This document shows, piece after piece, positions 7,459 to 41,506 of a stretch of 64,000 nt of DNA. The stretch covers positions 118,153-182,152 of the forward strand of contig PCYM01000001.1 of the NCBI GenBank assembly GCA_002774875.1, given 5' to 3'. Under the pieces are notes generated by a model, which saw nothing but the letters and a program-made list of their open reading frames with translations, had not been told where the DNA came from and did no database searches. This DNA comes from Candidatus Uhrbacteria bacterium CG10_big_fil_rev_8_21_14_0_10_50_16. GTDB lineage: Bacteria > Patescibacteriota > Patescibacteriia > UBA9934 > UBA11717. The translations under genes were made by a program, and so were the position numbers. The number at the start of each line of letters is the position of its first letter. The stretch's first letter is position 1.

Positions 7459-8973
7459 ATGAAAACTACGGTCTTACAAGGAGATATTACAACGTCCGAG
7501 GCAAATGTGTTGATCGTGGGACATTTGGAGGATGGTGGAAAGCGATTGGGGGGTGCATTGGAATCGATAGACACCGCGCTCGGCGGAGAAATTTCTGCAG
7601 CGATTACGGCAAAGGAGATAACCGGAAAACTTGCACAGATTTTGCTTGTTCGCACGCATGGTCGGATTCAACCGTCGCACGTGATCGTGGTTGGACTGGG
7701 AACAAAAAAAGAACTGACTGTGGAGCGTGTGCGCCAAGCCATGGGATCGGCTTGGTCTAGGGTCATGCAATTGAATGTCAGTTCTGTGGCGGCTGTGTTG
7801 ATGGGCGCAGGGAAGGGGGAGCAAGAGCCGCGTGCAATCGCACAGGCACTTACGGAGGCGGCACTGCTGACAAATTACAAATTTGATACGTGGAAAAAGA
7901 ACGATGACACTAAAAAGACGATCATTGCCAATTTGACGCTCGTTGAAATCCTGCCAGCTCATTGCAAGCTTGCAGTGCTTGGATGCGCGGACGGAGAGGT
8001 TTTTGCACAGGCGACGATTGTTGCGCGCGACCTTGTGAACGAGGCGCCTTCACACATGGTGCCAATGGAGCTTAAGCGAGCGGCGGAGGCGATCGCAAAA
8101 TCCTGTCCAGAGGTGTCCCTGAAGGTACTTGATCGCGCAGCAGCAAAGAAACGTGGCATGAATGCCTTCCTCGCCGTGGCTGCAGGGTCTACGACGGAAC
8201 CGTATTTCTTGCACCTCACGTATACACCAAACAAACCAACCAAAAAATCTATCGCGCTTGTCGGAAAGGGGATTACGTTTGATTCTGGTGGTTTGTCTCT
8301 CAAGCCTGCCGATGGCATGATGACCATGAAATGTGACATGGCGGGAGCGGCAACCGTACTGGGAATTTTTTCCGCATTAGGAAAGTTACAGCCAACGATG
8401 GTGGTTCACGGGTTGATTGCGGCGTGTGAAAATATGCCATCGGGCTCTGCGTATCGCCCGGGAGATGTCGTGACGGCCATGAACGGGACTACGATTGAAG
8501 TTTTAAATACGGATGCAGAAGGACGGGTCACCCTTGCCGATGCGCTCTCGTATGCCACGGAATTGCGCCCAAATGCGATCATTGATTTGGCAACACTCAC
8601 GGGTGCCTGTGTGGTGGCGTTAGGTGAGGAAATCGTTGGCGTCATGACGGACAATGAGAAGCTTGCAGAACGAGTGCTAGAAGCTTCGTATCAAGCGGGT
8701 GAGGAATTTTGGGAACTTCCCCTGTATCGAGGATACGAAGTACTGATTGAAAGTAAGGTTGCCGATGTTCAAAATATTGGGGTAAACCGATGGGGTGGAG
8801 CTTTGACGGCCGGTCTCTTCCTCAAGAAATTTGTGGACCCTGCCATTCCTTGGATGCACTTGGATATTGCCGGTCCGGCATTTGCTGAGCGTGAATACCT
8901 CTCGTATGTTCCCTATGGAGGGACGGGTGCTGGTGTTCGAACAGTATTGCAGATGCTCAAACAACGGTGGTAA
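7459..8973 (+). CDS. pepA: leucyl aminopeptidase (M17 family)
   Basis: NTDAEGRVTLADAL signature and M17 catalytic-domain pattern; 504 aa. Confidence 0.85.
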   Translation: MKTTVLQGDITTSEANVLIVGHLEDGGKRLGGALESIDTALGGEISAAITAKEITGKLAQILLVRTHGRIQPSHVIVVGLGTKKELTVERVRQAMGSAWSRVMQLNVSSVAAVLMGAGKGEQEPRAIAQALTEAALLTNYKFDTWKKNDDTKKTIIANLTLVEILPAHCKLAVLGCADGEVFAQATIVARDLVNEAPSHMVPMELKRAAEAIAKSCPEVSLKVLDRAAAKKRGMNAFLAVAAGSTTEPYFLHLTYTPNKPTKKSIALVGKGITFDSGGLSLKPADGMMTMKCDMAGAATVLGIFSALGKLQPTMVVHGLIAACENMPSGSAYRPGDVVTAMNGTTIEVLNTDAEGRVTLADALSYATELRPNAIIDLATLTGACVVALGEEIVGVMTDNEKLAERVLEASYQAGEEFWELPLYRGYEVLIESKVADVQNIGVNRWGGALTAGLFLKKFVDPAIPWMHLDIAGPAFAEREYLSYVPYGGTGAGVRTVLQMLKQRW

Positions 8974-10369: not shown

Positions 10370-11614
10370 ATGAATCGTTTCAAGTTATTAGGGGTAGGAA
10401 TCCTTGGCCTCGTACTATTGGGGGCAGGTTGCGGAACGTCTTCAAAGGGAGCTGTATCCGTTATTGATCAAGATCCAAACGCCACAACCACCGCGGGAGG
10501 GTATTATGAGGAGGTGCAGACTGTTAAAGGCGTTCACACGACGGTGCGACCGACAGATATTCATACGAGCGGACAAACGGCAGATACCTTTCCTATTCTG
10601 GATCACGCAGACTTTGTAACCGTGGAGGAAGCAGAGGCGGAGACAGATTATTTTGACGAGCTGTTTGGGTACGCGGTCGAGACAAACGACGGGCCACGAT
10701 TCTATTCTAGTCAGGTACTTGCTTGGCATAATATTGTCCATGATACGATTAACGGCCAGGATGCTCTTATTACGTTTAGCCCGTTGACGGGTACGGGTGG
10801 CGTCTTTGCTCGAGCAGGGGGAGAAAATTTTGCGTTCAGTGGTCTTGTTTGGAATAACGATGCGTTGTTTATGGATACGGAAACAAAATCCCTCTGGAGC
10901 GCATTGTTGGGTGAGTCGATTTACGGAAAACGTGCAGGGGAATCCCTTGTCCGTATTCCGTTTGAGGTGATGACGTGGAGTCAGTGGAAAACGGCGCATC
11001 CAGACGGTAAGGTGATGTCCGCAAACACAGGGTATGAGCGACGTTATAATTTGAGTCCGTACGGATCCTATTTGCAAACGCGATCAATTTACTTTGCGCT
11101 TTCTTCCCCTTACCAACCAGCACTTGAGCCAAAAGCGGTGATAAACGGTGTCACGATAGATGGATTCTCTAAGGCGTATCAGGAAGGGCCAATCGTCCAG
11201 GCGGCCGATCGCGTGTTGAATGACTTTATTGGAGAACATGCAGTTGTTGCGTGGGCCGACGCACAGAATGTGATTCATGTGCATGAGCGAACAGAGGAGA
11301 CAGTGTTTGTAAAGATTAAGGGAGTGGAATTGGTAGATTCAGAGGACCGTGTATGGTCACTGACCGAGAACGGCGACCTTGTAAACGGAGATCAAACGTT
11401 TGCCTCGTTAGCACCAACCAGTACGTTCTGGTTTGCTTGGAGTGCAACACATCCAGACACGGATTTATACGCATACGTCATTGGCAAGGGGCTCGTAAAT
11501 GGGCCGTATGAGTTACACGAAGGAGAGGGGGTTAACTTGGATGACGGGACAACAAAAATTGAGGTGGGAGACACATCCAAACTTGCTCCAGTAATTGAGG
11601 GAGTTTCTAACTAA
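10370..11614 (+). CDS. lipoprotein, DUF3179-like secreted protein of unknown function
   Basis: Signal peptide with lipobox LLGAGC; internal FSPLTGTGG..SGLVWNNDALFMDTETKSLWS pattern resembling DUF3179; assignment from memory. Confidence 0.45.
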   Translation: MNRFKLLGVGILGLVLLGAGCGTSSKGAVSVIDQDPNATTTAGGYYEEVQTVKGVHTTVRPTDIHTSGQTADTFPILDHADFVTVEEAEAETDYFDELFGYAVETNDGPRFYSSQVLAWHNIVHDTINGQDALITFSPLTGTGGVFARAGGENFAFSGLVWNNDALFMDTETKSLWSALLGESIYGKRAGESLVRIPFEVMTWSQWKTAHPDGKVMSANTGYERRYNLSPYGSYLQTRSIYFALSSPYQPALEPKAVINGVTIDGFSKAYQEGPIVQAADRVLNDFIGEHAVVAWADAQNVIHVHERTEETVFVKIKGVELVDSEDRVWSLTENGDLVNGDQTFASLAPTSTFWFAWSATHPDTDLYAYVIGKGLVNGPYELHEGEGVNLDDGTTKIEVGDTSKLAPVIEGVSN

Positions 11615-12282
11615 TGTCTGCAACGCTTTACATGGTTGCAACACCGATCGGGAACATGAAAGATATTTCTGATCGTACACGGTCGACGCTCTCCAGCGTC
11701 GACGTTGTGTTTGCGGAGGATACGCGTGTGGCGCAGTCGTTGTTGCAAAAACTCGATATAAACACGCCGGTTGAACGGTACGATCACCACAGCCACGATC
11801 GTCAAAGTCCTGCCGTGCTCGCATATTTACAAGGTGGAAAAGATGTTGCCTACGTGTCCGACGCAGGAACACCTGGAGTGGAGGACCCGGGCGGACGACT
11901 CGTAGAGGCCGTCACGCGTACGTTGCCAGACGTTGCTATCTCACCGATTCCAGGCCCGTCGGCGATCATGGCAGCGCTGTCCGTGAGCGGATTTCCTGCA
12001 GATAAATTTGTGGTCATGGGATTTGCTCCAAAGAAAAAAGGACGTCAAACATTTTTTGACACGCTCGCCCAAACAGAGGGGACCGTCGTCTTGTATGAGG
12101 CAACACATCGCATTCAAAAAACGATCGAGGAAATCGCAACAAGACAGCCCGATCGACCGATGTTGATTGCACGGGAGCTCACAAAAAAGTTTGAAACGCT
12201 CTTACGCGGCACGGCGCAAGAACTTGCTGTACGGTTGTCCTCAGAAAATACAAAAGGAGAATTTATCGTCGTGGTATCATAG
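11614..12282 (+). CDS. rsmI: 16S rRNA (cytidine1402-2'-O)-methyltransferase RsmI
   Basis: LYMVATPIGNMKDIS N-terminal tetrapyrrole-methylase-like motif typical of RsmI; 222 aa. Confidence 0.8.
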   Translation: MSATLYMVATPIGNMKDISDRTRSTLSSVDVVFAEDTRVAQSLLQKLDINTPVERYDHHSHDRQSPAVLAYLQGGKDVAYVSDAGTPGVEDPGGRLVEAVTRTLPDVAISPIPGPSAIMAALSVSGFPADKFVVMGFAPKKKGRQTFFDTLAQTEGTVVLYEATHRIQKTIEEIATRQPDRPMLIARELTKKFETLLRGTAQELAVRLSSENTKGEFIVVVS

Positions 12283-22194: not shown

Positions 22195-22208
22195 GATCAA
22201 AAAGCTAA

Positions 22209-22237
22209 TAAACACGGTTGATACGCCGTGTTTTTTA
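22209..22237 (+). terminator. atp operon intrinsic terminator (aacacgg..ccgtgtt plus T6)
   Basis: Hairpin plus TTTTTT directly after atpC. Confidence 0.6.
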
Positions 22238-22373
22238 GGTATAACCTTCTTTAGTCGACAAGGTGGACAGTGGGGTTCGTTGTGACTCGGTGAAGGTTGT
22301 TCGAGGGGAGTTAGACGAGCATTTCTGTACTATGGGGTATCCGAGGCATGAGTAGGATTCTGTAGGGTACCCG

Positions 22374-22822
22374 GTGGATGACATCGCGACGCGCAACCTG
22401 GCTCAGGATGTGCACGACAAGACGGTGATGGGTGAACGGATCATGGGGTGGATCCAGGCGTGCATCCAACTGCACAGTTGTCGCCAGATCGTGATCACGC
22501 TAAACGCTGGCGACCTGAGGAGTGAGTTCCGGGCCGCGGTGCTTTTGTGAATCGTGAAACAGTTTCCTCAGCAGCTAGGCATCACTTTTGTGAGTGTGAA
22601 CGTCGGAGAATACTCGGCGTTCGAGACACGGGACGAAGAAACGCAACAGCATAAAATGGATCTTTTGCGTGCAGCCGAGCAGGTCTCACAAACATATCCT
22701 GACATGGAGGTCAATTGATTCTTGTGCACATTGAAGATGATCAAACAATCTCCTTTGAAGACGTGGGGCGAGAGTCAATAAACACCCAGTTCTCCTCCAT
22801 TCAAGATTCGATCGAAGTGTAA
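22374..22822 (+). pseudogene. decayed gene remnant of unknown family: continuous reading frame with one in-frame TGA (22548-22550) and one +1 frameshift (~22712-22716)
   Basis: Three protein-like segments in register (..IVITLNAGDLRSEFRAAVLL* IVKQFPQQLGITFVSVNVGEYSAFETRDEE..YPDMEVN then LILVHIEDDQTISFEDVGRESIN..); no ATG start; lies in the G+C-rich island. Confidence 0.4.
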
Positions 22823-22867
22823 TTACAAAGCAGGCCGAGAGGTCTGTTTTTTATAAACTCGCCGTGA

Positions 22868-22896
22868 TTGACAAGCGTGAAAGAAAAAGGTATAGA
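22868..22896 (+). promoter_or_regulatory. sigma70-like promoter TTGACA, 17 nt spacer, TATAGA, upstream of the small-ORF pair
   Basis: TTGACA 22868-22873, TATAGA 22891-22896. Confidence 0.4.
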
Positions 22897-22943
22897 AGTG
22901 GCACCCAAGCGCAACAAATGCGTATTGGAACGGTGGAGTTGCG

Positions 22944-23189
22944 ATGACACTGGGAGACTTGTTGAGGGATTTGCAGGAGATCGTGCGCCGCGTGCTCAAG
23001 AACGCAAACGCGGTGGGATCAAGGTTCACCCGGTACGCAGAACTCAAGGAGGAGCTCCTGGCAGCTCTTCGTGCGGAGCTGCGGATCGGGTCTATCCAAG
23101 AGGCACATGCGTTGCCTGTCACGACCACGCTGAGCGATCAGGTGGCCAACTTGTTTCGTTCGCTGAGTCGTTACGCTGCGGCGCTCTAG
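22944..23189 (+). CDS. small orphan ORF A (81 aa, predicted all-helical), G+C-rich
   Basis: ATG preceded by GGTGGAG; MTLGDLLRDLQEIVRRVLKNANAVGSRF..; no family recognised. Confidence 0.4.
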   Translation: MTLGDLLRDLQEIVRRVLKNANAVGSRFTRYAELKEELLAALRAELRIGSIQEAHALPVTTTLSDQVANLFRSLSRYAAAL

Positions 23190-23230
23190 AAGCAGCTCGT
23201 CCCACCCCCACCAACCGCGAAGGAGCGGAC

Positions 23231-23545
23231 ATGACAAAAATGGTAAGAGAGGCGCTGCGGCGCGCAGAACGGATTCAGGGGATCGCCACCGACTCAAGGG
23301 CAGAGATCCCGATGGGGTGGGAAGACGCGCTCGCTGGGCTGGTGGATGACCTCATGGTTGCCATCTTCCGTCAGTGTGGCGTTCGTGATGCCGACGCGTT
23401 GACGGACGACCAGCTGGGAGAACCTCTTGACGAGGACTCGAGCCTCGCGTTCGACGCGCTCGTTACCCATGGGCAGAAGGTGACGCCGAGCAGGCTCTCA
23501 CTTCTCTCGGCTCCGATCCGACCTCCCCGAGGCTGGAGGCCATGA
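23231..23545 (+). CDS. small orphan ORF B (104 aa, acidic), G+C-rich
   Basis: ATG at 23231 preceded by AAGGAG; MTKMVREALRRAERIQGIATDSRAEIPMGWEDALAGLVDDL..; the upstream part of the long 22868 ORF runs through the promoter and is not credited. Confidence 0.4.
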   Translation: MTKMVREALRRAERIQGIATDSRAEIPMGWEDALAGLVDDLMVAIFRQCGVRDADALTDDQLGEPLDEDSSLAFDALVTHGQKVTPSRLSLLSAPIRPPRGWRP

Positions 23546-26068: not shown

Positions 26069-26656
26069 ATGCCAAACGGATCTGTGGAAGTTATTTGTGG
26101 AGGAATGTTCTCGGGGAAAACCGAGGAATTGTTGAGGCGTATTCGTCGGGAGCAGTACGCTCGACGGAAAATTCAATTATTTAAACACGGACTAGATCAA
26201 CGCTATACGGAGGGCCATGTGGAATCACACTCTTCTTTAAAGCTTCCCTCGGAGGAGGTTGCGACAGCTCAGGATCTGATTCGGCAGGTCAAGGAGGAGA
26301 CTCGTGTTGTTGGGATCGACGAGGTGCAGTTCTTTGACGACGAGATTGTGGCGGTTGCCAATCATCTGGCGGACCGTGGGGTGCGGGTGATTGTGGCGGG
26401 CCTTGACACCGACTATAAGGGCGTGCCGTTTGGTCCCATGCCACATTTAATGGCTATCGCCGAGGATGTTACAAAAATTCGTGCCGTCTGTGTATTGTGT
26501 GGCGGGCCTGCAAGTCGATCGCATCGACTCAGCCGGGAAGGGGACCAAGTGCAGGTAGGCGCGACGGATGTTTACGAGGCGCGGTGCCGATCCTGTGACG
26601 CGCTCCATGTGTGTCCTGTTCAATCAACTACAACTTCTTATGAAACGACTCATTAG
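26069..26656 (+). CDS. tdk: thymidine kinase
   Basis: P-loop GGMFSGKTEEL; C-terminal zinc ribbon (CVLCGG..CRSCD). Confidence 0.85.
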   Translation: MPNGSVEVICGGMFSGKTEELLRRIRREQYARRKIQLFKHGLDQRYTEGHVESHSSLKLPSEEVATAQDLIRQVKEETRVVGIDEVQFFDDEIVAVANHLADRGVRVIVAGLDTDYKGVPFGPMPHLMAIAEDVTKIRAVCVLCGGPASRSHRLSREGDQVQVGATDVYEARCRSCDALHVCPVQSTTTSYETTH

Positions 26657-27164
26657 TATATTCCTGTTCATTTTCTTGTTGGGCGCTGGCTGTGTATCAC
26701 CTCCTCCAACGTCGACCGTTGCGAGATCTTCTTGGTTTTTGACGCGTGCTGACAACCAACCGCTTTATGCCTTCACACCCTATTGGCAGTCGCGTGTGGA
26801 TTTTCCTGCTTACCCAGAACGTTCGCGCGTGGATGGCAATGATCGTGTGTGGCTGCAAACAGTCCCAGAGCCCGTGCGTGTAGACAATTATACCTACAAG
26901 GAAAAATTTACGTACTATCCAGACGAGGATTGGATTGTGTTTGATACAATCATTTTTGATAAGAAGGCCACTATGCCATCCAACGCCGAATTACGACAGA
27001 TCGGCAATAACACTATTGGGGTCATTCCAAATGGCAACGGCGTGTTTACCATGTTTTTTTTACAGACAGAGTCTGGACTATTTCAAATCATCCCCTATTA
27101 TGGGTCGGACGTAACGGAGCAACAAATGGAGGAGGTGATTGGACAACTGGTGGATAACACATGA
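26640..27164 (+). CDS. hypothetical lipoprotein
   Basis: MKRLISIFLFIFLLGAGC signal peptide with lipobox; overlaps the tdk 3' end by 17 nt. Confidence 0.5.
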   Translation: MKRLISIFLFIFLLGAGCVSPPPTSTVARSSWFLTRADNQPLYAFTPYWQSRVDFPAYPERSRVDGNDRVWLQTVPEPVRVDNYTYKEKFTYYPDEDWIVFDTIIFDKKATMPSNAELRQIGNNTIGVIPNGNGVFTMFFLQTESGLFQIIPYYGSDVTEQQMEEVIGQLVDNT

Positions 27165-39338: not shown

Positions 39339-39554
39339 ATGAAGGGTTGTTGCAAGAATTCTGGAGGAATCCAGATGGTCGCCTGGGTATTAATCATCGT
39401 TGGAGCTATTAACTGGGGTCTTGTTGGAGGCTTTGGATTTAACCTTGTTAACTGGATTTTCTCATTCAGTGAGGTTGTAGAAACGATCGTTTACATCCTT
39501 GTTGGAGTCTCTGGAGTGTACGCGGTATTTACGGGGTGTCACGGTAAAAAGTAG
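39339..39554 (+). CDS. DUF378-like small membrane protein
   Basis: VAWVLIIVGAINWGLVG motif; start is either 39339 or 39375. Confidence 0.5.
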   Translation: MKGCCKNSGGIQMVAWVLIIVGAINWGLVGGFGFNLVNWIFSFSEVVETIVYILVGVSGVYAVFTGCHGKK

Positions 39555-39574
39555 GCTGCCATAATTGAGAGAGA

Positions 39575-39605
39575 AACGACCATAAACACATGGTCGTTTT
39601 GTTTT
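39575..39605 (+). terminator. intrinsic terminator (aacgaccat-aaacac-atggtcgtt plus T-run)
   Basis: 9-bp stem followed by TTTTGTTTT. Confidence 0.6.
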
Positions 39606-39795
39606 AGACAAATCCGTCTGCTACATTTTACGACACAAAGTACAAGGGAGGGGAGCGAGGGTAGAGGACTACACAGAATGAGATCGCCACATACTTACCG
39701 TTAAGATATGGGAAGTTGCTAAATACAAATAGGAATTTCCGCTACGGAGATATTTTTATTTTAACTGCAAATATTTTCAAGGTAGTCCGGGACGT

Positions 39796-39819
39796 CTCAA
39801 ATCAACACAGGTCAATTTT
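39796..39819. repeat. direct repeat copy 1: ctcaaatcaacacaggtcaatttt (24 nt, exact)
   Basis: Identical 24-mer recurs at 40239-40262. Confidence 0.7.
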
Positions 39820-40238
39820 GATTTTCATAGATTTGTGAGAGGATGTTTTATCGTGTCACAATTGGCTATCTGTACAATGTGAACATGCATCAGCGCATGG
39901 AAACGCGTTAATCGGATACAATAATAACAATCTGTAGGACGTATTAAAAAGAAAGCAATCAATAGAAGCATTAACGTATATATAGATTGACTACCAAGGA
40001 ATACGTAGTCGAATCTCCCATGAGTCGTAAAAGGTATATTGCGCGACACATAGAACAAACTGCTTCGTCACGCAAGGAGGTGCTGCACCTCGCCTGTCTT
40101 CTATCCAGATTCCTTGTGTTTAAAGGGATCTTGTTCGAATGAGTGCTTTGATACCCTATCGAACCGTATATTCTCTCCCCCTGTGTTATCTGAAGCCCCG
40201 TGTCACTACAAAAGAAAAATTAACGTGCCTTACTACCC

Positions 40239-40262
40239 CTCAAATCAACACAGGTCAATTTT
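40239..40262. repeat. direct repeat copy 2: ctcaaatcaacacaggtcaatttt (24 nt, exact)
   Basis: Identical to 39796-39819, 443 bp away, in a gene-free spacer between convergent genes. Confidence 0.7.
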
Positions 40263-40282
40263 AAGCGTTAAAACAAACGAAC

Positions 40283-41506
40283 TTATTGATTAATAAGATA
40301 TTCATAAGGGTTTACGGGAATACCATTCTCCCGAACCTCAAAGTGTAGATGTGCTCCCGTTGAAAGTCCTGCACCAGGGGTTCCTGGAATTCCACCGGTT
40401 TTACCAATTGGTTGGCCTCGCTCAACAAACTGATCGGCTCTTACGTCCATTTGCGACAAATGTGCGTAGAGCGTGGCCACGCCGTTAGCGTGGATAATCA
40501 TAATGTAGTTTCCATAGCTGCGTCCTGTGAGCGCCCAGGCGACGTATCCTGGTGCGGCGGCTCGTAGCTGTGTTCCGTATGGAACGGCCATGTCGAGTCC
40601 GGAATGCTCAAAGAGATGACGGAACGGATATGTTGGGTCGTGAAACGTTGCCGTGATGACGGGGCCTGTAACGGGCCAGGACAAAATTGTCGGTCCAATA
40701 AGCTCTTGTGCTTGCTCATCTCCCTCGTCAATTTTGCGATTAACCTCCTCCTGCAATCGGAAAATTTGTGTCTGAATATATTGGCGCTCCTCACTGAGCT
40801 CACGAAGCAGCACACCAAACTGTGCCTCTGAATTCTCCGCAGCAGCTAGGAGTGAATCCTTTGCGGCCTTCTCTTGTTCTAGGTGTAGTTTTGTCTTTTG
40901 TAATTCCTCCCGCATAGAGACAAGTCGCTCTTTTTGCTCCGTTTGCTGTTCTTGTTGTGCGGACAACTGTGCACTCAACGTCTTTACGCGTTCTAGTGTA
41001 AGGGATAGATCCTCTTGCAATGTTTCTAGGTATTGTACTTGATCAAAGAACTCCGAAAATACATCATGGCCAAAAAGAACTTCAATAGGACCTGCGTCGT
41101 CTACCTGATAAAGTTCTTTGAGGACAATACCGATCATTGTGCGTGCCTCTGTGATTTGCTGTTCCGCACTTACAATCTCCTCTCGTGTTTTGTTGATCTC
41201 TAGTTCTACCTTGTCGATCGAAAGTTGCGCAGATTGAATGTCGAGCTGTGTCTTTTTGACGCGGTTTTCTAAAATGGAGAGCTCGTTTGAAAGGCTTTTT
41301 TGTTGTTGCTCAGCCTTAACGATCTTATCCTGAAACTGATCAATCTTATTGCGGATACCGTCAATTTCTGCTTGCTTGTTCTCAATGTCCGTCGAGAGTT
41401 GATCGACTGTTGTTGCGGAGACGCTTACCACAAACGCACTTGTCGCAAAAAGCGCAAGAAGAATCGGGAAAACGACGTAACGTTGGAAAAGATTCGCTTG
41501 CTGCAT
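40283..41506 (-). CDS. M23-family peptidase with N-terminal coiled coil (EnvC/LytM-like)
   Basis: Long coiled-coil N-terminal region; C-terminal M23 motifs (HxxxD-like GIDMAVPYGT; HLHFEV). Confidence 0.8.
   Translation of the reverse strand: MQQANLFQRYVVFPILLALFATSAFVVSVSATTVDQLSTDIENKQAEIDGIRNKIDQFQDKIVKAEQQQKSLSNELSILENRVKKTQLDIQSAQLSIDKVELEINKTREEIVSAEQQITEARTMIGIVLKELYQVDDAGPIEVLFGHDVFSEFFDQVQYLETLQEDLSLTLERVKTLSAQLSAQQEQQTEQKERLVSMREELQKTKLHLEQEKAAKDSLLAAAENSEAQFGVLLRELSEERQYIQTQIFRLQEEVNRKIDEGDEQAQELIGPTILSWPVTGPVITATFHDPTYPFRHLFEHSGLDMAVPYGTQLRAAAPGYVAWALTGRSYGNYIMIIHANGVATLYAHLSQMDVRADQFVERGQPIGKTGGIPGTPGAGLSTGAHLHFEVRENGIPVNPYEYLINQ

Follow-up and report, generated by a model that had tools for sequence, protein, structure and literature searches.

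A putative dif/terminus module with repeated 41-nt motifs in a gene-free gap of an Uhrbacteria chromosome

The gene-free gap and its repeats

The stretch of DNA analysed here, called the window in the following, comprises 64,000 nucleotides (nt) from Candidatus Uhrbacteria bacterium CG10_big_fil_rev_8_21_14_0_10_50_16 (contig PCYM01000001.1, positions 118,153 to 182,152). The subject of this study is a gene-free gap in this window that contains two exact copies of a 24-nt sequence and, between them, a putative chromosomal dif site. The gap is 728 nt long (39555-40282) and separates two convergent genes. The left neighbour is the DUF378 gene (39339-39554, plus strand), an open reading frame (ORF) with a PF04070 domain that is conserved in relatives. 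Its intrinsic terminator, with an 11-bp stem and a U-run, is located at 39573-39605 on the plus strand (folding energy -15.8 kcal/mol, z = -3.3). The right neighbour, encoded on the minus strand, is the gene for an M23 peptidase with a coiled-coil N-terminal part (40283-41506). The sequence of this peptidase shows 100% identity to a protein from Candidatus Uhrbacteria bacterium CG10_big_fil_rev_8_21_14_0_10.

The original prediction, made from the sequence of this stretch, described the gap as an AT-rich spacer of about 720 bp without a credible ORF, in which exact 24-nt direct repeats flank 419 bp. The sequence confirms both statements. The 24-mer CTCAAATCAACACAGGTCAATTTT is present at 39796-39819 and at 40239-40262, both times on the plus strand, with 443 nt from start to start and 419 nt between the copies. 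Allowing up to three mismatches, no further copy was found on either strand of the 64 kb, and none is expected by chance (100 shuffles). The GC content of the gap is 0.35-0.41 compared to approximately 0.48 in the surroundings. Its small ORFs (40-77 amino acids) are not conserved in relatives, where they match only the conserved DNA islands described below; the DUF378 gene, which served as control in the same comparison, was present in all relatives. Convergent genes had also been reported to be otherwise 30 bp or less apart, which is roughly right for the other convergent pairs of the window (gaps of 34, 27, 13, -20 and 178 nt).

For comparison we used 80 loci around homologues of the M23 gene (approximately 13 kb per locus) from species-representative genomes of GTDB, nearly all of them Uhrbacteria/Patescibacteria. 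Four closer relatives with M23 identities of 88, 75, 75 and 70% were added, and the related loci, designated by L numbers, total 1.07 Mb. A six-genome alignment was made from the window and its closer relatives, including L008, L208 and L209-L211; it reaches down to 70% M23 identity. The order of M23 gene, a gap of 674-747 nt and DUF378 gene is kept in all five closer relatives, and on seven metagenome contigs the spacer is 100% identical. Across the six genomes the spacer is mostly unalignable apart from islands, namely a left half-site together with a G-tract, the dif-like site, and an island of about 45 nt which includes the first copy of the 24-mer.

The dif-like site and the polarity of its surroundings

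When the spacer was compared by BLAST with the 80 loci, one short segment (window approximately 40017-40052) turned out to be conserved in dozens of distant genomes. It contains a dif-like 28-mer on the plus strand (40022-40049), located midway between the 24-mers and composed of a left arm GAGTCGTAAAA (40022-40032), the centre GGTATA (40033-40038) and a right arm TTGCGCGACAC (40039-40049). An iterated weight-matrix scan, for which shuffled loci gave a maximum of 6.6 bits, identified one high-scoring copy per locus in 61 of the 80 Uhrbacteria loci (26-50 bits). The window has a single copy as well, with 40.5 bits; on the plus strand of the 64 kb the runner-up reaches 3.9 bits, a value otherwise exceeded only by the minus-strand reading of the same site (13.6 bits). 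In the 61 genomes the site is located between convergent genes, 50-900 nt downstream of the stop codon of the M23 gene, and in either orientation. The linkage to the M23 gene is class-wide and unusually stable, spanning 37-100% protein identity. Since stop codons break every frame in many loci, the site is non-coding. The linked M23 gene is of a cell-division type (EnvC/NlpD-like, with a coiled coil).

The consensus of 62 sequences is GTGTCGTATAA-GGTATA-TTGTGCGACAC. Its 11-bp inverted arms are identical at 9 of 11 positions and enclose a 6-bp centre, and this 11-6-11 architecture is that of a dif site, which has two imperfect inverted arms of about 11 bp around a centre of 6-8 bp. We compared the consensus with reference dif sequences (PMC3025954). 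With E. coli dif, GGTGCGCATAATGTATATTATGTTAAAT, it shares 18 of 28 positions, while shuffles of the consensus reach 8.4 matches on average and 16 at the 99.9th percentile; with B. subtilis dif there are 15 of 28 matches.

The sequence around the site is polar. In E. coli the consensus of the FtsK orienting polar sequences (KOPS) is GGGNAGGG (PMC3384302). In the window this octamer is found seven times on the plus and never on the minus strand to the left of the site, and never on the plus but five times on the minus strand to the right, so that all 12 copies point toward the site and none away from it. Two of the five right-side copies are antisense inside plus strand genes. Pooled over 62 loci, with 300 nt on each side of the site left out, 144 copies point toward and 8 away from the site. 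Genes transcribed away from the site still contain 21 copies that point toward it and 2 that point away, and therefore the polarity depends on the side of the site and not on transcription. The strongest skew among 8-mers is that of GCAGGGGA, CAGGGAAG, GGGAAGGG and GGGCAGGG; in the 62 loci, the reverse complements of GCAGGGGA and GGGCAGGG are the commonest 8-mers on the right side, at +200 to +240 nt.

The GC skew of the plus strand is positive in each 2-kb bin up to 40 kb (+0.06 to +0.24, about +0.14) and then drops to approximately zero at the gap. In the pooled loci it changes sign, from +0.051 on the left to -0.044 on the right of the site. Plus strand genes have a skew at third codon positions (GC3 skew) of +0.28 left of the site and of about +0.1 right of it, and for minus-strand genes on the right the value is close to zero. 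The 8.6 kb that follow on the right (L212 1-8617) have a weak skew of the expected sign and contain no further KOPS. Strand asymmetry in this genome is lopsided: near the terminus the right replichore is almost without skew on both gene strands, yet the polarity of the KOPS is perfect. A replication origin can be excluded: there, KOPS and G-excess would be directed outward. On the complete chromosome OZ246408.1 (1.003 Mb) the dif-like site is located at 51% of the length of the record.

From these sequence data we are fairly confident that the gap represents the dif/terminus region of the chromosome, with 40022-40049 as its dif site. The central site would also explain why the gap exists. Xer tyrosine recombinases would add a crossover at 40022-40049 and thereby resolve chromosome dimers, and FtsK would be steered to dif by the G-rich polar octamers that converge from both replichores.

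In many loci the dif-like site is the centre of a symmetric module. The stop codon of the left gene is followed by TTTTACGACACA, a G-rich tract, about 200 nt of AT-rich sequence, dif, another 200 nt or so, a C-rich tract, TGTGTCGTAAAA and the right gene's stop codon. The two arms of the module, left and right, form an imperfect inverted repeat. The 12-mer TGTGTCGTAAAA corresponds to the left dif arm without a partner arm and is called half-site here. With up to one mismatch, the density of half-sites is 0.74 per kb up to 700 nt from dif and 0.05 per kb beyond, which is a 15-fold difference; the half-site is no general motif of the genome. They read away from dif (53:11 near the site, 30:2 farther out), and this polarity persists out to 6 kb. 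In the window, the left arm of the module has the single-arm site TGTGTCGTAAAAT (39625-39637, minus strand), which is of the left-arm sequence type, reads away from dif and is invariant in the six genomes. It is followed by the G-rich tract GGGAGGGGAGCGAGGGTAGAGG (39647-39668, plus strand), which is KOPS-like without being an exact GGGNAGGG, points toward the dif-like site and is G-rich in relatives too. From the right, a KOPS-like tract that is G-rich on the minus strand (40173-40199; reverse complement ...CAGGGGGAGAG) points toward the site. The adjoining outward single-arm site GTGTCACTACAAAA (40200-40213, plus strand) is degenerate and a weak call made by eye; intact half-sites have this position in other loci. 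Judging from their sequence, the outward single arms TGTGTCGTAAAA probably bind one recombinase monomer each.

Further observations concern the module. A short element of the type TATATAGAT(A) is located 40-110 nt left of the dif-like site in the window (39979-39987) and in L024, L027, L029, L033, L035, L036 and L038. The same seven loci and L083 have the symmetric architecture with half-sites at approximately +/-240 nt and no detectable copy of the 41-nt motif described below. A second architecture contains this motif, and TGCGTCG, with which a dif arm starts, often comes immediately after it (L019, L039, L053, L059, L068 and others). The clade of the window combines elements of both. Three other assignments were rejected. 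The segment GTGTCGTAAAA is not a general promoter motif, as it occurs within the 64 kb at this locus only. An active invertible switch had been considered since the half-sites are inverted and the orientation of the segment varies; all pairs with at least 75% M23 identity agree in orientation, and the closest discordant pair has 53%. A recombinase-plus-site module of the XerS or XerH type (PMC5357621) was dismissed as well; no Xer gene is linked to the site in the 1.07 Mb of loci.

The 41-nt motif and rival explanations

The 24-mer is the core of a longer dif-associated motif of about 41 nt, termed A-motif, with a consensus of about GGGGTActagGATACCCCTcAAATCAACacAGcGCAtTTtAAA. In the six-genome alignment the island of about 45 nt with the first 24-mer reads AGGTAt.CCAG.ACC.CTCAAATCAACACAGskCAATTTTGA. 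This island, together with similar dif-proximal sequences of distant loci, was used to construct a weight matrix, for which the shuffle maximum was 15.4 bits. In the 64 kb it detects only two copies. Copy 1 (39780-39820, plus strand) scores 43.7 bits and is conserved in the six close genomes, down to 70% M23 identity. Copy 2 (40223-40263, plus strand) scores 46.3 bits and is located at a distance of 20 nt from the stop codon of the M23 gene. Its upstream flank, CTTACTACCCCTC, is closer to the family consensus than the one of copy 1, and thus copy 2 is a second complete instance of the motif rather than a fragment of 24 nt.

Beyond the clade of the window, A-motifs above the shuffle maximum are present in about 30 of the 80 GTDB loci. 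The matches lie 110-710 nt from dif with three exceptions: two low-scoring matches are approximately 4 kb away from the site, and the third is in a locus that has no dif-like site. Whichever way the dif unit faces the M23 gene, the motif is found on the same dif-arm side in 28 of 31 cases, at a median distance of 256 nt. The usual state is one copy approximately 250 nt from one particular dif arm; in the lineage of the window, another was acquired on the opposite side of dif. That the 24-mers are perfectly identical in this genome may be due to constraint or to gene conversion; the two copies of L008 show differences at five positions. Two copies were also observed in L009 (7885-7925, minus strand, and 7982-8022, plus strand). 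These lie 97 nt apart in inverted orientation, both to one side of dif, which shows that the motif was duplicated more than once. Phage, plasmid and viral collections gave no match to the motif. A metagenome scan with a degenerate 17-nt core returned at least 120 unrelated chance matches, none of them listed with a dif-like site. One metagenome contig (Ga0307960_1000779, L158 2351-2628) has three exact 17-nt cores in a degenerate tandem array with units of about 80 nt and no dif-like site, which probably is a coincidence.

The explanation that accounts best for the locus as a whole, and that we consider probable from the sequence comparisons, is a dif/terminus gap in which the 24-mers are the cores of accessory motif copies. 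To the more specific proposal that a protein binds the motif as an accessory element of the region, in functional coupling with the dif arm next to it, we give an even chance; this proposal is made by analogy with the one-sided accessory sequences of plasmid Xer sites. The protein bound there might be an architectural or regulatory factor acting with the recombinase on the adjacent arm, or a protein that organises the terminus.

Several observations weigh against the dif/terminus explanation. The inner dyad of the site is weaker than in classical dif, with most of the symmetry at positions 1-6 with 23-28. Kono et al. ask for more than four complementary pairs between positions 7-12 and 17-22 (PMC3025954); the consensus has three Watson-Crick pairs and two T-G pairs, counted by hand, and this threshold was tuned on XerCD sites of other phyla. 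The single-copy status of the 28-mer applies to the 64-kb window and the loci of approximately 13 kb, and a 28-bp palindrome could in principle be an operator instead. No Xer or FtsK gene was found in the window or in the 1.07 Mb of related loci, and a tblastn search of the latter with an approximate sequence of E. coli XerD as query gave no match. Since no such gene is present in the window or the linked loci, the enzymes themselves are inferred. The GC3 skew on the right side of the gap in this genome is about 0 to +0.1, so that the break is sharp but without a clean reversal. As for the A-motif, its orientation is mixed (18 same, 13 opposite), and approximately half of the dif-bearing loci are without a detectable copy. 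Copy 2 is conserved in the closest relatives only (86-88%; L008 and L208) and is degenerate or absent at 70-75% M23 identity (L209-L211). To our knowledge, no protein is known that binds the motif.

Four other explanations were weighed against the dif/terminus region. According to the first, transcription of the 24-mer motif or of the whole module would yield a functional RNA, be it a small RNA, an element of a 3' untranslated region (UTR) or a structured RNA of about 500 nt, closed by the half-sites and the G- and C-rich tracts and with the 28-mer as a hairpin. The motif does contain two short palindromes, GGTA-N4-6-TACC and GCATTTAAATGC, copy 2 is located within the 3' UTR of the M23 gene, the module arms are imperfect inverted repeats, and the gap is large and conserved. 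However, RNAalifold predicted no pairs for 28 copies of the motif, covariation in the GGTA...TACC hairpin was no greater than in shuffles, the motif is found in both orientations, and the half-sites conserve sequence and not pairing. A covariance-model scan, one of the checks proposed earlier, gave no Rfam match in the gap even at E<=10, and none was obtained in 11 other loci. The search for known RNAs as a whole, which included Rfam at the gathering threshold for the 64 kb and ARAGORN, returned only chance matches on the DUF378 terminator. RNase P RNA had been considered because of the segment GGTAGTCCGGGAC; this segment belongs to the A-motif and gave no Rfam signal. An RNA would also leave the convergence of the KOPS and the break in skew unexplained. 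We therefore regard an RNA as unlikely, and the small RNA gene or genes envisaged in the original prediction were not borne out.

The second explanation is a replication fork trap, in which the polar half-sites, and perhaps the 24-mer motif, would be Ter-like sites for a terminator protein, arranged compactly around dif. Inverted, outward half-sites on both sides that keep their polarity to 6 kb (53:11 and 30:2) have indeed the geometry of a fork trap. Against this, the half-site has the sequence of one arm of the dif-like site, and for this reason binding of a recombinase is the simpler reading. In addition, the 24-mer copies are direct and not inverted repeats, and the orientation of the motif relative to dif varies. 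No homologue of Tus or RTP turned up, although no search was aimed at them. We consider a fork trap similarly doubtful.

The third explanation concerns regulation of transcription: the repeats would be duplicated promoter or operator modules that drive transcription into the gap or antisense to its neighbours. Each copy carries TTGACC on the minus strand, which had been taken for a -35-like element, one weak promoter-like match overlaps the edge of copy 1, and a conserved motif of about 41 nt with a palindrome has the size of an operator. The hexamer is indeed present, but it has no usable -10 element and is TTGCGC in the relatives with 70-75% M23 identity (L209-L211). The gap contains five promoter-like matches, compared to 2.8 +/- 1.6 in shuffles, and none of them uses TTGACC. 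Both neighbours are convergent and point into the gap, there is no conserved ORF or known RNA to be transcribed, and the motif tracks dif and not any gene. Promoter or operator modules that control transcription here are quite improbable. Of the earlier proposals the operator came nearest, as the motif is conserved, is present in two copies and apparently binds a protein, to judge by its sequence.

The fourth explanation, that the repeats mark the ends of a small inserted or excised element (as attachment cores or a target duplication) or were left by an integrative mobile element exploiting Xer (IMEX) at dif, is very improbable and largely refuted. It could draw on the exact direct repeats around 419 bp and on the fact that dif sites are known integration targets where such events leave dif-like partial sites (PMC3025954, PMC5357621); but the bracketed segment holds the resident dif-like site, shared at the same place by 61 of the 80 related genomes, the five closer relatives all have the full-length spacer and none has the empty site that was to be looked for, there are no terminal inverted repeats at the boundaries and no more copies in 64 kb, and phage, plasmid or viral matches are missing. 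Moreover, copy 1 is ancient and copy 2 clade-specific, which is unlike a pair made by one insertion. A miniature inverted-repeat transposable element or other small mobile element was rejected for the same locus, as there are only two copies in 64 kb and all relatives keep the segment with dif.

Elsewhere in the window, a second gene-free stretch of 673 nt (22195-22867) is located downstream of the gene for the ATP synthase epsilon subunit; it has no Rfam match at E<=1 and is followed by an ORF of 225 amino acids (22868-23545) without a Pfam match and with a local GC content of 0.54. What look like gaps at 11615-12166 and 26657-27160 are occupied by ORFs of 222 (11614-12282) and 198 amino acids (26568-27164), respectively. 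The 64-kb window contains neither tRNA genes nor Rfam families at the gathering score.

Significance and relation to known systems

Chromosome maintenance in the Candidate Phyla Radiation (CPR)/Patescibacteria is almost unstudied because most of these bacteria remain uncultured, and we found no paper on dif or KOPS in Patescibacteria. The dif site itself is ordinary; new are the module of polar single arms, the 41-nt motif and the tight linkage to the M23 gene. If only the assignment of dif holds, this is ordinary biology in a new group. A dif consensus and a KOPS-type motif for one class would allow placement of the terminus on metagenome-assembled genomes, which aids assembly checks, the orientation of replichores and estimates of replication rates. 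A dif site with conserved satellites, that is polar single arms and the 24-mer motif, offers candidate sites for Xer monomers and another factor. We tentatively suggest, as a possibility with more against it than for it, that the terminus functions of Uhrbacteria, and perhaps of CPR bacteria more widely, are gathered in a single compact and conserved gene-free module of 0.5-0.75 kb next to an M23/EnvC-like division gene. Such a module would comprise a near-symmetric dif, outward single arms, the first KOPS on each side and the motif of about 41 nt as the site of a new terminus-organising or Xer-regulating factor, and dimer resolution, loading and stopping of FtsK, and unloading or a boundary of SMC might all be organised there.

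Among known systems, the chromosomal dif/XerC/XerD/FtsK/KOPS system of E. coli and its counterpart with SpoIIIE and its recognition sequences (SRS) in B. subtilis are similar in the 28-bp site with 11-bp inverted arms and a 6-bp centre, in one site per locus, located at convergent genes, in convergent GGGNAGGG-type octamers and in the change of GC skew. The sequence of the inner arm and centre is close to that of E. coli dif, which accompanies the 18 of 28 matches of the consensus. In contrast to these systems, the arms of the Uhrbacteria site are far more symmetric (9 of 11), with the symmetry in the outer positions, and the site is tied to one gene, that of the M23 peptidase, across a whole class. 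It is also placed in a conserved gene-free module of 0.5-0.75 kb with extra motifs, and it is served by enzymes that we infer. The Ter/Tus and Ter/RTP systems share with the Uhrbacteria module the polar, inverted sites on both sides of the terminus; they differ from it in that the half-site is a dif arm and the 24-mers are direct repeats. We know of no terminator protein in this group.

The plasmid sites cer and psi have accessory sequences of about 180 bp on the XerC side, which are bound by PepA together with ArgR or ArcA, and their recombination is independent of FtsK. PepA of E. coli doubles as an accessory DNA-binding factor for Xer recombination at both sites. The A-motif resembles these sequences in being conserved and in keeping to one side of the core, at a distance of a few hundred nt (the 28 of 31 cases with a median of 256 nt), irrespective of the neighbouring genes. 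Unlike in cer and psi, its distance is variable (110-710 nt) and its orientation is not fixed, and no ArgR or ArcA box was recognisable, although no rigorous search for such boxes was made. Convergence of the KOPS on the site suggests dependence on FtsK, which is a further difference from cer and psi. A gene for a PepA-type M17 leucyl aminopeptidase is present in the window (7459-8973).

In the archaeon Thermococcus kodakarensis, dif is located in an intergenic region of 1.9 kb, and the flanking sequence, not dif, acts as an SMC boundary (PMC11840125). The Uhrbacteria gap is similar as an unusually large intergenic region with dif between convergent genes, and the 24-mer motif may, by analogy, instead be related to such functional sequence around dif (PMC11840125). 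The differences are the archaeal host with XerA, the length of 1.9 kb, and the lack of defined motifs and of sequence similarity.

The half-sites can be compared with the XerD-binding SMC-unloading sites (XDS) in the terminus of B. subtilis and S. aureus, which are described as having one XerD arm, a degenerate centre and, of a second arm, the 5 innermost bp (Karaboja et al. 2021, as summarised in PMC9226527 and PMC11840125). The Uhrbacteria half-sites differ by the lack of a conserved partial second arm after TGTGTCGTAAAA, by inspection, and by being strictly polar and crowded within a few hundred nt of dif. Like XDS, they are located in the terminus region outside dif, as their densities within 700 nt (0.74 per kb) and beyond (0.05 per kb) show. 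As additional terminus sites with one bona fide recombinase arm and not a full dif, XDS are the nearest precedent for the half-sites of Uhrbacteria.

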